Positions 1 through 4,679 of a stretch of 64,000 bases of DNA are shown here, one piece after another (the stretch's first letter is position 1; each line of letters opens with the position of its first letter). A program made the position numbers and the translations under genes. The notes under the pieces were generated by a model, which saw only the letters and a program-made list of their open reading frames with translations, made no database searches and had not been told where the DNA came from. The DNA is from Lachnospiraceae bacterium (GTDB taxonomy: Bacteria > Bacillota > Clostridia > Lachnospirales > Lachnospiraceae): assembly GCA_021203145.1 (NCBI GenBank), contig JAJQBS010000086.1:8343-72342 (forward strand). The letters are read 5' to 3'.

Positions 1-687
1 CACGCGGAAACCGTTCTCCTTGCAGAGCCTGATCGCGCGCAGCGCATCCTGCTCGGCTCCGCTGTGATGGCGCAGCCAGTCGTGATGCCCTGTTCCGTCA
101 TAGGAAATCTTCATGTAAGGCCGGCATCCGGCTTCCTTCATCTCGTCCAGAATCTCCTGCGTGATGAAGGAACCGTTGGTGTTCAGCTCATTCAGGAATA
201 TATGATGTCTCTGGGCACTGCGGACGACGTCCATGAAATGCGGGTGCATCATCGGTTCGCCGCCGGTCAGCGTCAGGGCGTTGATCCCGCAGGTCTCCAT
301 CTGCGTGAACAGGGTCTCCGCTTCCTCTAGAGTGAACTCGCTCTGGAGGCGCGCATTATCCGCCGCGTTAAAACAGTGCAGACAGTTATAGTTGCACTTG
401 CCCGTGAGCATCAGGCTGGCATGCGGGAAGTAGCGGTTGTTGCAGAATTTCGCCCGCTGCCAGTCGTTCATTCGCTCGCACGGCCGTGCCTCCCGGATGA
501 ATCCGCGCGCTTTCAGCGAAGCGGCAATTTCATTTTCGGGCAGGTCGGTTTCACCGTCGCACAGGGAGAGGAAATCAAATTCCCCTTTCTGCAGTTTTTT
601 TGCTTCATATTCGCCCCGGATATAATAAGCGCAGGGCACATACCACCAGCTGCGCAGGGCGATGCCGGGGTTTAAGATGTATTTCAT
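1..687 (-). CDS. RiPP-type radical SAM protein with N-terminal RRE-like region; 3' end runs off the left edge
   Basis: Hand translation from ATG at 687: MKYILNPGIALRSWWYVPCAYYIRG...FLSLCDGETDL...LTGKCNYNCLHCFN...LTLTGGEPMMHPHF...LNTNG...KISYDG. CxxxCxxC at 373-396 plus GGEP/TNG motifs; frame open to position 1, so absent from the ORF track. Confidence 0.9.
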   Translation of the reverse strand, partial: MKYILNPGIALRSWWYVPCAYYIRGEYEAKKLQKGEFDFLSLCDGETDLPENEIAASLKARGFIREARPCERMNDWQRAKFCNNRYFPHASLMLTGKCNYNCLHCFNAADNARLQSEFTLEEAETLFTQMETCGINALTLTGGEPMMHPHFMDVVRSAQRHHIFLNELNTNGSFITQEILDEMKEAGCRPYMKISYDGTGHHDWLRHHSGAEQDALRAIRLCKENGFRV

Positions 688-749: not shown

Positions 750-1118
750 TCATTTTGCCACTACTACCTGCCCGCTGACCGCGTCGGTGAATTGAATTCT
801 CACATAACAATTAAAGGTACTGCCTGAATCAATATATCTTTCAAGCAGGACTGCCCATAAATCCTCGGACACACTTAAACCCATCTCAGCCAGATTTATA
901 TCAAAATCAATCACACTGGTTCCTTTTGCTACGCTCACCGTCACCGGAAACTGTACCTGTACCGTTTCCGCTGTGATGTCGTCTTCGATGACGACTTCAG
1001 AGGCGCAGGTGTCGTCGCAGGTGTCGCTGGAATCGGAGCCGCCTGTCACCTGATCCAGTTCCTCGTCCACGATTTCTCCGGTGACAGGGTTTATTATCTT
1101 CTGGTCTTTATTGTCCAT
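750..1118 (-). CDS. Double-glycine-leader precursor protein 1 (122 aa)
   Basis: GGAGG RBS 7 nt upstream; leader NPVTGEIVDEELDQVTGG; directly upstream of and co-oriented with the radical SAM gene. Confidence 0.85.
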   Translation of the reverse strand: MDNKDQKIINPVTGEIVDEELDQVTGGSDSSDTCDDTCASEVVIEDDITAETVQVQFPVTVSVAKGTSVIDFDINLAEMGLSVSEDLWAVLLERYIDSGSTFNCYVRIQFTDAVSGQVVVAK

Positions 1119-1258
1119 AACAGTTCCTCCTTTTGTTGATTTGATTTTTTTGTTTTCCTTTGCTATCTGTTTCTACGACAAAACAGAGAAAAGGGAACCT
1201 GATTCGGCGGCGGCCGGCACAAAATTCTGCTTGCCTGTCGCAAGCCAGGTATTACAGA

Positions 1259-1287
1259 ATCATACCATTTTTCCTCCCTGCTTTCAA
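1259..1287 (-). promoter_or_regulatory. sigma-A promoter for precursor 1 and radical SAM
   Basis: Minus strand TTGAAA-N17-TATGAT with TG extension. Confidence 0.6.
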
Positions 1288-1352
1288 TATATTATTTTCC
1301 TTTTTCCGGCAAAAAACAAAATAACAGCTTTCCATTTTGCAACAAAAAGGGG

Positions 1353-1381
1353 ATGCCAAACGGAAAAACATGTGCTATAAT
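1353..1381 (+). promoter_or_regulatory. Divergent sigma-A promoter for precursors 2/3
   Basis: ATGCCA-N17-TATAAT with TGTGC extended -10. Confidence 0.55.
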
Positions 1382-1581
1382 CACAACAATTCATTCCCCC
1401 GCTGCAGACTATACCATCAGGGGTACCGGCATGTCGGCGGATTCTTTATGCTCCTGCTGCCCGTACGCCGCTCTGCGGAAATAAAGAAGAAAGCAATATC
1501 CCCCCGGCGTGTTTTCATCGTATAGACAGACAGCCGAAGATAAAGAAGCATAAATCAGAGAATTTACGAGGAGGACTGCAC

Positions 1582-1902
1582 ATGAGAACCAAAAAACTGC
1601 AGCACAACATGGAGCTCGAAAGCTTCACGGAGACGCCGGCAGGATATGAACTGCCCGATGAGCAGCTGGATGGCGTGTCCGGCGGCTTGATAGATGAGGC
1701 AATATACCCGGTGATCCTGCACGTCCAGGCAGGGGTAGCTATCGACGATGTTGAATACACATTAAGCGAATACTGTCTGCTCAGTGAAGCAGCCGCAGAG
1801 GCAGCGGCATATCTGGTCGAAGAATGTTCAAGCGATTCTATTCATTTAAGTGTCGCTGTAAAGATAAAAATAACCAACGCCACTACATGGGAACTGCTTT
1901 AA
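1582..1902 (+). CDS. Double-glycine-leader precursor protein 2 (106 aa)
   Basis: GAGGAGG RBS; leader YELPDEQLDGVSGG; post-GG region aligns with precursor 1. Confidence 0.85.
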   Translation: MRTKKLQHNMELESFTETPAGYELPDEQLDGVSGGLIDEAIYPVILHVQAGVAIDDVEYTLSEYCLLSEAAAEAAAYLVEECSSDSIHLSVAVKIKITNATTWELL

Positions 1903-2016
1903 GGCTGATACCGGTTTATACCGTGTCATTGTACAGCGATAACCGCTGTGGGGGGATTTCCTGTATAAACAGCAAAAAAGAATAAAAACAGGTCAAAAAA
2001 CAAAGGAGGATTTGCA

Positions 2017-2551: not shown

Positions 2552-2684
2552 AATTGTTCGCCTTCCTGCAATGTCGTTTTTCATAAAGCATTCGTGTTGT
2601 TTAATGTAAAAATCAGAGCCAAATTCGTTGATTTTTACACGAATATATGCTATGCTATGTTCAGTACCTTCAGGGAGGTTAATT

Positions 2685-3980
2685 ATGTATAGAAAAATCA
2701 CGGGATTTTTGGAAAGCTGGAAAGCAAACAGATACCGCAAGCCCTTAATTTTGCAGGGAGCAAGACAGGTAGGTAAAACCTGGTCTGTTCTGGAATTTGG
2801 ACGCACCCATTATGAGAATGTCGCATATTTCAATTTTGAAACGAATCCAAAATTGAATGAAACCTTCACGGAAAGCATAAGCCCTGAATATCTGATACCG
2901 ATTTTGTCCCATATTGCAGGACAGACGATAGTAAAAGAAAAAACGCTGATTGTTTTTGATGAGGTGCAGCTTTGTGAAAGAGCTTTGACGAGCCTTAAAT
3001 ATTTCTGTGAGGATGCGCCGGAATATCATATCATTGTTGCAGGCAGTATGCTTGGCGTTGCAGTAAACAGGGCAAAGTTTTCTTTCCCTGTCGGTAAGGT
3101 AGATATGAAAACTCTCTATCCAATGGATATGGAAGAATTTATGTTAGCCTGCGGCGAAGATACCCTTGTGGAGCAGATTAAAAAGTGTTTTGAAACGAAC
3201 ACACCTCTGCCAGGTGCTTTACACGATGCGGCAATGCTGCTTTATCGTCAATATTTGATTGTTGGTGGTATGCCTGAATGTGTGACGCAGTTTGTCGGAA
3301 CGAAAGACTATATCCTTGTCCGGCATACGCAGGATACTATTCTTACAAGCTATCTTAATGATATGAGCAAATATAACAATCTTAATGAAATTAAGAAAAC
3401 AAGACTTGTTTATAACAATATCACAGTCCAGCTCTCAAAGAAAAACACCCGTTTTCAGTACAAGCTGATTAAAAAAGGCGGCAGGGCTTCCGAGTTTGAA
3501 AATGCGATTGAATGGCTTAGTCTGTCTGGTATCGTGTCACAGGTTTATAAAGCAGAGCAGATAAAAAAGCCGCTTGAAAACTACCGTGATATTGATGCTT
3601 TCAAAATCTATGTATCAGACTTAGGGCTGCTCTGTGCAAAAAAAGACTTAGCGGCAAATGATATTCTCTATATGGTTGACGAAATAAACGATTTCAAGGG
3701 TGGCATGGCTGAGAACTATGTCAATGTGCAGTTATCCATTAACGGCTACAACACCTACTATTGGGAGTCCGGGCGCGAGGCTGAAATTGACTTTATTATT
3801 CAGCGTGACGGACAGCTTATCCCGATTGAGGTCAAATCCGCAGACAATACCAGAGCCAAGAGTTTAAATCTGTATATGCAAAGACATCAGCCCGCCTACG
3901 CTATCAAGCTCTCTGCAAAAAACTTTGGCTTTGAGGACGGAAAAAAGACGGTTCCTCTCTACGCCGCATTTTGTATCTAA
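2685..3980 (+). CDS. AAA+ ATPase (AAA_14/DUF4143 type)
   Basis: GGAGG RBS before ATG 2685; Walker A GARQVGKT, Walker B VFDEVQ, C-terminal EIDF...IPIEVKS. Confidence 0.85.
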   Translation: MYRKITGFLESWKANRYRKPLILQGARQVGKTWSVLEFGRTHYENVAYFNFETNPKLNETFTESISPEYLIPILSHIAGQTIVKEKTLIVFDEVQLCERALTSLKYFCEDAPEYHIIVAGSMLGVAVNRAKFSFPVGKVDMKTLYPMDMEEFMLACGEDTLVEQIKKCFETNTPLPGALHDAAMLLYRQYLIVGGMPECVTQFVGTKDYILVRHTQDTILTSYLNDMSKYNNLNEIKKTRLVYNNITVQLSKKNTRFQYKLIKKGGRASEFENAIEWLSLSGIVSQVYKAEQIKKPLENYRDIDAFKIYVSDLGLLCAKKDLAANDILYMVDEINDFKGGMAENYVNVQLSINGYNTYYWESGREAEIDFIIQRDGQLIPIEVKSADNTRAKSLNLYMQRHQPAYAIKLSAKNFGFEDGKKTVPLYAAFCI

Positions 3981-3994
3981 ACATTTCGTTTATA

Positions 3995-4051
3995 CAAACA
4001 TTTGTTTGCTATTTTCGTACATGTGTGCTATACTGAGGAAAACATATGTAC
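3995..4051 (+). promoter_or_regulatory. lexA promoter with candidate SOS boxes
   Basis: CAAAC-attt-GTTTG (3995-4008), AAAC-atat-GTAC (4040-4051), extended -10 TGcTATACT (4027-4035). Confidence 0.6.
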
Positions 4052-4067
4052 GAAGGAGGTACCAATT

Positions 4068-4679
4068 ATGCCTGGAACCATTACACCGAAGCAACAGGAA
4101 ATCCTCGAATATATAAAAAGTGAGATCCTGCAACGCGGCTTCCCGCCGGCTGTCCGGGAGATCTGTCAGGCAGTTCACCTGAAATCCACATCCTCCGTTC
4201 ACTCCCACCTGGAGTCACTGGAGAAAAACGGATATATCCGGCGTGACCCGACCAAGCCGCGCGCGATTGAGATTCTGGACGATTCCTTTCAGATGGTACG
4301 CCGCGAGATGGTAAGTGTCCCCATCGTCGGCACAGTGGCTGCCGGTGTGCCGATTCTGGCAGAGCAGAACATTGACAGCTATTTCCCGATTCCGGCCGAA
4401 TATATGCCGAACGAGCAGTCTTTTATATTGCGTGTGAAAGGCGAGAGCATGATCAATGCCGGCATCCTCGATGGCGACTGTGTCCTGGTCCGCCAGCAGC
4501 AGACCGCGGAAAATGGGGATATCATTGTCGCACTCATCGAAGACTCTGCCACAGTCAAAACCTTTTACAAAGAAAACGGGCATATCCGCCTTCAGCCGGA
4601 AAACGATACCATGGATCCGATTATCGTCACGGATCTTGCCATCCTTGGAAAGGTTTTTGGCGTGTTCCGGTTCTTCTGA
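4068..4679 (+). CDS. lexA: SOS repressor LexA
   Basis: AAGGAGG RBS; winged HTH ([23 protein letters not shown]), VAAG cleavage site, GESM Ser, TVKT Lys. Confidence 0.97.

Follow-up and report, generated by a model that had tools for sequence, protein, structure and literature searches.

The small proteins of one gut clostridial gene cluster raise the question of whether an open reading frame (ORF) with a double-glycine (GG) leader that lies beside a radical SAM gene encodes the substrate of that enzyme. The cluster lies at the left edge of a 64,000-nucleotide stretch of Lachnospiraceae bacterium assembly GCA_021203145.1 (contig JAJQBS010000086.1), which spans C69:8343-72342 in a 3.5-Mb, 124-contig genome; this whole stretch is referred to as the window. 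Since the window's edge cuts through the cluster, its off-window side was read from C69:1-12000 (locus L002), a window coordinate being the L002 coordinate minus 8342. On the minus strand the genes run in the order P1, a radical SAM/SPASM enzyme (rSAM), P0, a leucine-rich repeat (LRR) protein, a 160-aa membrane protein, two ATP-binding cassette (ABC) transporter genes (ABC1 and ABC2) and a TetR-family regulator, while P2, followed by a Nif11-leader precursor of 129 aa, diverges from P1 on the plus strand. An original prediction, made from the letters of the window, described P1 and P2 as small folded proteins that are exported by a GG leader and possibly modified; P0 and the exporter escaped that first reading because both lie beyond the left edge. 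From sequence comparison and structure prediction we infer, with a probability of about 0.6, that P0, P1 and P2 are mini-proteins that would be cleaved and secreted by the neighboring exporter to act outside the cell, without being modified as substrates of the adjacent rSAM.

P0, P1 and P2 form one sequence family

P1 (window 750-1118, minus strand) encodes 122 aa with the GG at residues 26-27 and a core of 95 aa, P2 (1582-1902, plus strand) encodes 106 aa with the GG at residues 34-35 and a core of 71 aa, and the off-window paralog P0 (C69:7250-7585, minus strand) encodes 111 aa with the GG at residues 32-33 and a core of 78 aa. In P1, a GG leader (residues 1-27, 1038..1118) that ends in NPVTGEIVDEELDQVTGG and is preceded by the ribosome-binding site AAGGAGG 7 nt upstream is followed by an acidic, hypervariable linker containing CDDTC (residues 28-56, 951..1037) and then by the copy of a shared ~66-aa domain (residues 57-122, 753..950; stop codon 750-752). 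In P2, the leader (residues 1-35, 1582..1686; ribosome-binding site GAGGAGG) ends in YELPDEQLDGVSGG and leads directly into the domain, with the 71-aa core and the stop codon occupying 1687..1902. The ORF positions, sequences, core lengths of 95 and 71 aa and CDDTC motif originally reported for P1 and P2 were all correct.

Because the full-length BLASTP alignment of P1 with P2 (E=2e-4) consists mainly of the leader and of the ~20 residues with which the domain begins, the cores after the GG were compared alone by Smith-Waterman alignment against 2000 shuffles. The P1 and P2 cores scored 51 against a shuffle mean of 26.3 (z=5.1), a score reached by 2 of the 2000 shuffles, so that the paralogy originally claimed for them after the GG held against shuffled controls. 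The P0 and P2 cores scored 58 (z=7.1; 0/2000 shuffles) and the P0 and P1 cores 40 (z=2.7; 46/2000 shuffles). These data indicate that the paralogy of the three proteins is real at the sequence level, with P0 bridging the two copies in the window.

Across the nine family members, the invariant core positions are a D three residues after the GG, P8, G16, L26, L31 and I60-62. The conserved pattern proposed earlier, PVxxxVxxG...L...L...I.xT.A, thus stood in part. P1 (family hidden Markov model (HMM) match E=2.4e-30 in the genome scan) is 73% identical to its orthologues P0007 and P0008 over the domain and only 33-42% over the 29-residue linker, in which CDDTC is replaced by DTSDTRAS or DTSDTCAS; the linker has no counterpart in P0 and P2. 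P2 is 79-83% identical to its orthologues P0003 and P0004. Strongly acidic in their mature form (net charge -9 to -13, about -10 for P2; pI about 4), the proteins hold two to three Cys residues each, at positions that differ between paralogs and even between orthologues. No Cys is invariant among the nine members, and the columns that never vary are limited to D, P, G, L, L and I.

The leaders carry the recognition motif of peptidase-containing exporters

The motif E-[L/I/F]-x-D-E-x-L-[D/E]-x-V-x-G-G is shared by the final 13 leader residues of every paralog and orthologue and is identical to that at the end of the leader of the locus's own Nif11 precursor. Positions -4, -7 and -12 are the grip points of the peptidase domains of peptidase-containing ABC transporters (PCATs), whose substrate leaders end in GG or in GA/GS (PMC6959990, PMC7018657), and hydrophobic residues precede the GG at all three positions in all nine family members. 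P1 has E at -13, I at -12, D at -10, E at -9, L at -7 and V at -4, and P2 has V at -4, L at -7 and L at -12. Against an HMM built from 45 Nif11 leaders at the loci of rSAM homologues (see below), the P1 leader matched the last 19 of 63 positions (E=8.5e-6), and the P0 and P2 leaders gave no match at E<=1e-3. Neither TIGR03798 nor PF07862 was matched by P0, P1 or P2 in Pfam and NCBIfam searches. The tail of the leader thus appears to behave as a portable export tag.

A suitable exporter is encoded nearby. ABC1 (C69:3241-5424, minus strand) reached 948 bits against TIGR03796 (cutoff 853) and contains a Peptidase_C39 domain (PF03412, E=7.6e-34), and ABC2 reached 728 bits against TIGR03797 (cutoff 709). 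This NHLP-type exporter with a C39 peptidase shares its strand and its string of genes with P1 and P0. The 160-aa single-pass membrane protein (L002 5440-5922, minus strand) matches only the first 46 of the 421 positions of the NHLP HlyD-type model and adjoins the exporter in 16 of 35 rSAM-homologue loci; it resembles a membrane-fusion-like accessory protein that has been truncated.

The GG leaders that had been called by eye are therefore genuine PCAT-type leaders with a C39-peptidase exporter in their operon, from which cleavage and export are predicted. The cores are indeed long for a ribosomally made, post-translationally modified peptide (RiPP), as had been remarked, yet they have the usual size of an unmodified PCAT cargo: CtA of Clostridium thermocellum, exported by PCAT1, has a 24-aa leader and a 66-aa cargo (PMC6959990), and class IIa microcins have cores of 74-90 aa that are unmodified except for disulfides (PMC10233263). 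Taken together, P0, P1 and P2 most likely use the neighboring peptidase-ABC exporter, as judged from their leaders and gene context.

The radical SAM enzyme is probably partnered with the Nif11-leader precursor

The rSAM gene (C69:7650-9029, minus strand; 459 aa), whose N-terminal 229 codons lie within the window (1..687), matches PF04055, PF13353 and PF13186 and encodes a ~90-residue N-terminal extension ahead of the CxxxCxxC motif. It falls short of every NCBIfam equivalog, the best score being 114 bits where the cutoff is 500. The enzyme has more than 1700 homologues, many of them 55-79% identical over the full length, and our literature search found nothing specific on a characterized Nif11/rSAM system of this type in gut bacteria; the family is apparently large, common in metagenome-assembled genomes (MAGs) of gut Clostridia and uncharacterized.

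We surveyed 35 loci of rSAM homologues, among them L011, L012, L014 and L020-L051, with 2966 ORFs in all. ORFs with a full Nif11-type leader were present in 30 of the 35, often in arrays of up to 12 per locus (e.g. L035), and their cores are 55-85 aa long with 5-12 Cys, a Cys standing 1-4 residues past the GG. Motifs such as ...CxxCxYEKGLWLCN recur among the precursors of these loci. The precursor next to P2 (2017..2406, plus strand) is of the same kind, with a leader of residues 1-66 and a 63-aa core that holds 5 Cys, one of them directly after the GG. It matched Pfam Nif11 with 26.3 bits (cutoff 23.8), TIGR03798 with 32.3 bits (cutoff 32.3) and the Nif11-leader HMM over its full length (E=4.9e-29), and it has an orthologue (E=5e-29) in L011, the precursor immediately upstream of a 79%-identical rSAM. 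On this sequence evidence, it is likely the cognate rSAM substrate.

The P-family HMM, by comparison, found no match among the 2966 ORFs of the 35 loci (best E 0.16), and the LRR gene was found in none of these loci. Two features by which an rSAM-modified RiPP would be recognized, co-occurrence of precursor and maturase and a conserved donor Cys, are thus both missing from the P family (0/35 loci; no conserved Cys). The rSAM is therefore probably not the partner of P0, P1 and P2.

Several of the surveyed loci also hold other GG-leader ORFs with Cys-poor, probably folded cargos of ~70-80 aa (L011 1448-1747; L024 5948-6247; L025 4141-4536; L030 6150-6545; L051 4219-4494), which are unrelated to the P family in sequence. 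Their presence suggests that a broader class of such cargos may exist.

Relatives have lost the radical SAM gene and kept P1 and P0

In two relatives, loci L003 and L009, a P1-like gene, a P0-like gene and the LRR gene have kept their order, the LRR gene adjoining P0 in these two loci as in the window's own. Between P1 and P0, both hold a scar of the rSAM gene of ~110 nt (L003 3735-3900; L009 3900-4070), made up of the first 13 codons with a stop behind them (MKYILNPGVALRSG, then stop), 60 nt from inside the gene that encode KFCNNRYFPHASLMLTG, and a few codons of its end. L003 and L009 have identical breakpoints, which suggests that rSAM was deleted once, in an ancestor. The P1 and P0 orthologues are intact in both genomes, and in G001, the genome that holds L009, no rSAM homologue was found anywhere at E<=1e-10. 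The exporter has been kept, being 95% identical in protein in L003 and located on another contig in G001.

These findings bear on two earlier points. P1 and P2 had been thought possibly modified, which agrees poorly with a family that lacks a conserved Cys and whose P0 and P1 are intact where only an rSAM scar is left; a constant place of the homologues next to radical SAM genes, named earlier as a thing to check, likewise finds no support, the domain being present in 0 of the 35 rSAM-homologue loci and beside a mere scar in both relatives. The best reading is that the P proteins are unmodified, disulfide-bonded at most, insofar as the absence of modification can be read from gene content and residue conservation.

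The scar is followed by a gene for a peptide of 91/97 aa, whose leader is homologous to the P0 leader and whose Cys-rich core is homologous to that of the Nif11 precursor (E 1e-9 and 2e-7), without the Cys next to the GG. We interpret this peptide as the product of a leader swap that accompanied the loss of the rSAM maturase. A leader of this type on an unrelated Cys-rich core fits a portable export tag.

The P2 orthologues lie elsewhere, next to a MatE gene and with neither a maturase nor an exporter in the vicinity. P2 and ~320 bp upstream of it (window 1258-1910) form a ~650-bp block that is 82% identical to L007 1872-2514, where it lies in a wholly different context, between a MatE-type gene and the gene of a 278-aa repeat protein. 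The block behaves like a small relocatable cassette. The cluster as a whole is also mobile: ABC1 of G001 (G001:C61:14522-16702), a genome outside the 63 scanned genomes of the window's own genus, is 95% identical to that of the window's genome, whereas the Obg housekeeping GTPase (G001:C31:24008-25297) is only 69% identical, indicating horizontal transfer of the whole locus among Clostridia that are only distantly related. Both the P family and the LRR protein are read as lineage-specific additions to a mobile Nif11/rSAM locus.

The cores are predicted to fold as a compact alpha/beta domain

AlphaFold2 was run on the P0 and P2 cores with the nine-sequence family alignment. The P0 core was predicted with a mean predicted local distance difference test score (pLDDT) of 86.6 and a predicted template modeling score (pTM) of 0.74, with all five models between 84 and 87, and comprises a strand (9-13), two helices (19-27 and 33-46) and three strands (52-56, 60-64 and 70-74). 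The best P2 model (pLDDT 84.6, pTM 0.68) has the elements beta-alpha-alpha-beta-beta in the same order as P0. P0 and P2 are therefore predicted to have a common fold, beta-alpha-alpha-beta-beta(-beta). The beta-alpha-beta pattern guessed earlier from hydrophobicity was roughly right, and the models add a second helix and further strands to it; the single topology modeled at pLDDT 84.6 and 86.6 also supports the earlier view of these cores as small folded proteins instead of hypervariable RiPP cores.

In Foldseek searches of both models against the PDB, and against BFVD, nothing was below E=0.05. The top matches of both models were the N-terminal domain of ribosomal protein L11 and the archaeal transcription factor 8hnp, which have a like beta-alpha-alpha-beta-beta topology (query-normalized TM 0.5-0.6, at most 0.61) but only E values of 0.05-1, identities of 10-18% and no sequence signal. 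This likeness is a simple topology in common and not evidence of homology or function.

The family is an orphan of about three genomes

A word-indexed search of 5.8 billion proteins recovered eight proteins only, namely the three paralogs and their orthologues in two MAGs, both labeled "Clostridiales bacterium" (GCA_021201015.1 and GCA_021203365.1). When 1.84 billion representative proteins were scanned exhaustively by HMMER with a core-only profile, the three orthologue groups (E 1e-26 to 1e-29) and nothing else credible were recovered. By six-frame scans with the family HMM, exactly three copies were found in the window's own genome and none in the 63 genomes of the same GTDB genus or in 81 relatives from 33 genera.

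Several candidate relatives were rejected. The giant RTX proteins P0009, P0010 and P0012 (E down to 6e-14, summed from 4-9 stretches) are repeat-summing artefacts; P0009, whose real domains are HemolysinCabind and HCBP_related, also gives E values of 1e-13 to 1e-4 with a dozen unrelated Pfam families, although none of its stretches is significant by itself. P0013 has only a 15-residue FPVTVxFxxG motif in common with the family. An origin of the domain from the 160-aa accessory protein or from a 99-aa ORF of L011, another long-core GG protein, found no support from hhalign (probability 0.3% and 3.8%, respectively).

Against Pfam, NCBIfam and PHROGs, P0, P1 and P2 gave only sub-threshold matches of leader type (lantibiotic, ComC and mersacidin leaders), and among PDB sequences a profile search found no match below E=1.7. 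The original remark that the family was not a recognized one thus held, neither Pfam, NCBIfam and PHROGs nor the sequences and folds of the PDB or the folds of BFVD giving a significant match. By these sequence searches, the P family is an orphan with no known relatives, present in about three genomes.

The P cores evolve fast in intact frames

Substitution rates were estimated between the window's own locus and L003 by the Nei-Gojobori method, with small counts for the small genes. The dN/dS ratio was 0.10 for the exporter gene ABC1 and 0.14 for the 160-aa accessory protein, compared with 0.48 for the P2 core (range 0.36-0.48), 0.66 for the P0 core and about 1.0-1.2 for the P1 domain. dS was alike across the compared genes (0.15-0.4), and dN of the P0 and P1 cores was 7-10 times that of the exporter genes. 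Between L003 and L009, P1 differs by 14 nonsynonymous and 1-2 synonymous changes. Such fast evolution is compatible with diversifying or with relaxed selection. None of the nine copies has lost its open frame, start codon or leader, and in a neutral simulation at 20-25% divergence only 6-10% of copies stayed stop-free, indels not counted. The preserved frames, together with the far better conservation of the P1 domain than of its linker, argue for functional P proteins.

Proposed mechanism and alternative explanations

We propose that each P gene gives rise to a precursor with a GG leader of 27-35 residues. The NHLP-type exporter (ABC1/ABC2 with the 160-aa accessory protein) would bind this leader through its C39 peptidase domain and cut it off after the GG, so that a cargo of 71-95 residues is translocated. 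Outside the cell, the cargo would fold as a compact acidic beta-alpha-alpha-beta-beta(-beta) domain, possibly with one disulfide. The P family may thus have only the distal, exporter-recognition part of a Nif11-type leader and use the exporter without the maturase. As to what the secreted proteins do, we would guess at interbacterial antagonism or competition, or at a cell-surface interaction, possibly together with the LRR protein, and hold this far less firmly than secretion itself. More generally, the Nif11/NHLP-type export loci of gut Clostridia might serve as a route for folded, Cys-poor mini-protein effectors, with the P family as one mobile module that works with the LRR protein, an idea that we put forward tentatively and consider doubtful.

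Several observations weigh against secretion as unmodified effectors. P1 and P0 directly flank rSAM in one operon, and the scar in the relatives makes this the ancestral arrangement. Membrane-active bacteriocins do not typically have a net charge like that of the P proteins, -9 to -13, nor is an immunity gene evident in the ORF lists, in which the 160-aa protein is the only small membrane protein, with small ORFs not exhaustively analyzed. Position -15 of the leader, often hydrophobic as well in PCAT substrates, is not so here (N/T/G), the other four P2 models are of low confidence (59-65), and the fast evolution (dN/dS about 0.5-1.2) is also compatible with relaxed constraint.

The flanking of rSAM by P1 and P0 inside one operon invites the explanation that the three proteins are giant-core RiPP or protein substrates, in which rSAM installs crosslinks (e.g. 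thioethers from the 2-3 Cys) before GG export. The ~90-residue extension ahead of CxxxCxxC resembles that of peptide maturases, the end of the Nif11 leader has a homologue in the P1 leader, and the usual precursors of this rSAM family are also long-cored (55-85 aa). Nevertheless, the family offers no invariant Cys or other obvious acceptor residue, the homology to the Nif11 leader is confined to the last 19 positions in P1 and its body is unmatched in P0 and P2, and the domain is absent from all 35 rSAM-homologue loci. P0 and P1 have also stayed intact in two rSAM-deleted genomes, one of them without any rSAM genome-wide, and the P2 orthologues have no maturase at their locus. We consider this explanation unlikely, if the best placed of the rivals.

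A slightly smaller chance still goes to the P genes being decaying or functionless passengers, that is, duplicated leader-plus-domain cassettes that are near-neutral in a mobile locus. This would account for a dN/dS of about 0.7-1.2 and a dN 7-10 times that of the exporter in the P0 and P1 cores, for the 14 nonsynonymous against 1-2 synonymous P1 changes between L003 and L009, and for a family confined to about three genomes; it fits less well with nine of nine open copies where neutral simulation leaves 6-10% stop-free per gene, with 73% identity in the P1 domain against 33-42% in its linker, with a dN/dS of 0.36-0.48 in P2, or with confident and concordant AlphaFold2 folds and strong ribosome-binding sites. 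Least probable is that the P proteins stay inside the cell and serve the Nif11 peptide there, for example in immunity, as chaperones or in regulation, their GG serving no export. The acidic, soluble-looking alpha/beta fold of the models would suit such a role, as would the lack of a separate immunity gene in the ORF lists of the locus, but the eight-position leader motif is that of the Nif11 precursor and of the PCAT consensus, is kept in all paralogs and orthologues, and in the relatives a leader of the same type is fused to an unrelated Cys-rich core. Secretion of unmodified mini-proteins by the neighboring exporter thus remains our preferred reading.

Comparison with known export systems

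CtA of C. thermocellum, the substrate of PCAT1, is the closest parallel: like the P proteins, it is a small protein of Gram-positive bacteria (Clostridia) with a short GG leader that is encoded beside its PCAT, and its 66-aa cargo, of unknown function, is recognized through leader positions -4, -7 and -12 only (PMC6959990). No sequence similarity between CtA and the P family was detected. Different from CtA, the P family has a two-gene NHLP-type exporter (ABC1 with the C39 domain, and ABC2) with a 160-aa accessory protein, and its cargo is triplicated and placed inside a Nif11/rSAM locus.

The class IIa microcins MccV, MccL and MccN also join a large core to a GG leader, here of about 15 aa, and are exported by a PCAT, but they are Gram-negative, Gly/Ala-rich proteins with a dedicated immunity gene and proven antibacterial activity (PMC10233263), whereas the P proteins are strongly acidic, are predicted to adopt a compact alpha/beta fold and have no identified immunity gene. 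With the Nif11-like/NHLP precursors (TIGR03798, TIGR03796 and TIGR03797), the P locus has in common the exporter family (with scores that exceed the trusted cutoffs), the final ~13 residues of the leader and a genuine Nif11-leader precursor. Unlike those precursors, P0, P1 and P2 lack the ~45-residue Nif11 leader domain, and their cores appear to be a conserved folded domain rather than Cys-rich or hypervariable.

The P family is therefore new in sequence and fold among the GG-leader cargos of peptidase-containing ABC transporters, a known class, and it is a candidate new secreted effector or bacteriocin-like protein. Two systems can be told apart at this locus, an rSAM/SPASM enzyme with Cys-rich Nif11-leader precursors and folded mini-proteins with the exporter-recognition end of the leader. 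For RiPP genome mining, the locus cautions that a GG-leader ORF beside a radical SAM gene need not be its substrate.

Layout of the locus

The genes of the cluster are tightly packed on one strand, each with its own ribosome-binding site, and the intergenic distances are 62 nt for P1-rSAM, 65 nt for rSAM-P0 and 27 nt for P0-LRR. Strong ribosome-binding sites precede every small gene, such as the AAGGAGG of P1 and the GAGGAGG of P2. Upstream of P1 lies a promoter-like site (1259..1287, minus strand; TTGAAA-17-TATGAT, 10/12 with TG), which is a consensus match only and at which an operon P1-rSAM-P0-LRR-160aa-ABC1-ABC2 may possibly start. Another such site (1353-1381; 10/12 with TG) lies upstream of P2. 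Promoter-like sites are not clearly enriched in the region, with 6 found against 3.7+/-1.9 expected.

To the right of the precursor genes follow an AAA_14/DUF4143 ATPase (2628-3980, plus strand) and a LexA-like repressor (4002-4679, plus strand), neither of which shows any sign of belonging to the peptide locus. The off-window LRR gene (L002 6048-7225, minus strand) encodes a BspA-like protein that is predicted to be secreted or anchored. It holds a run of N, an assembly gap or masked stretch, and the ORF list thus gives it as pieces of 295 aa and 144 aa; its orthologue in L003 is an intact ORF of 386 aa.

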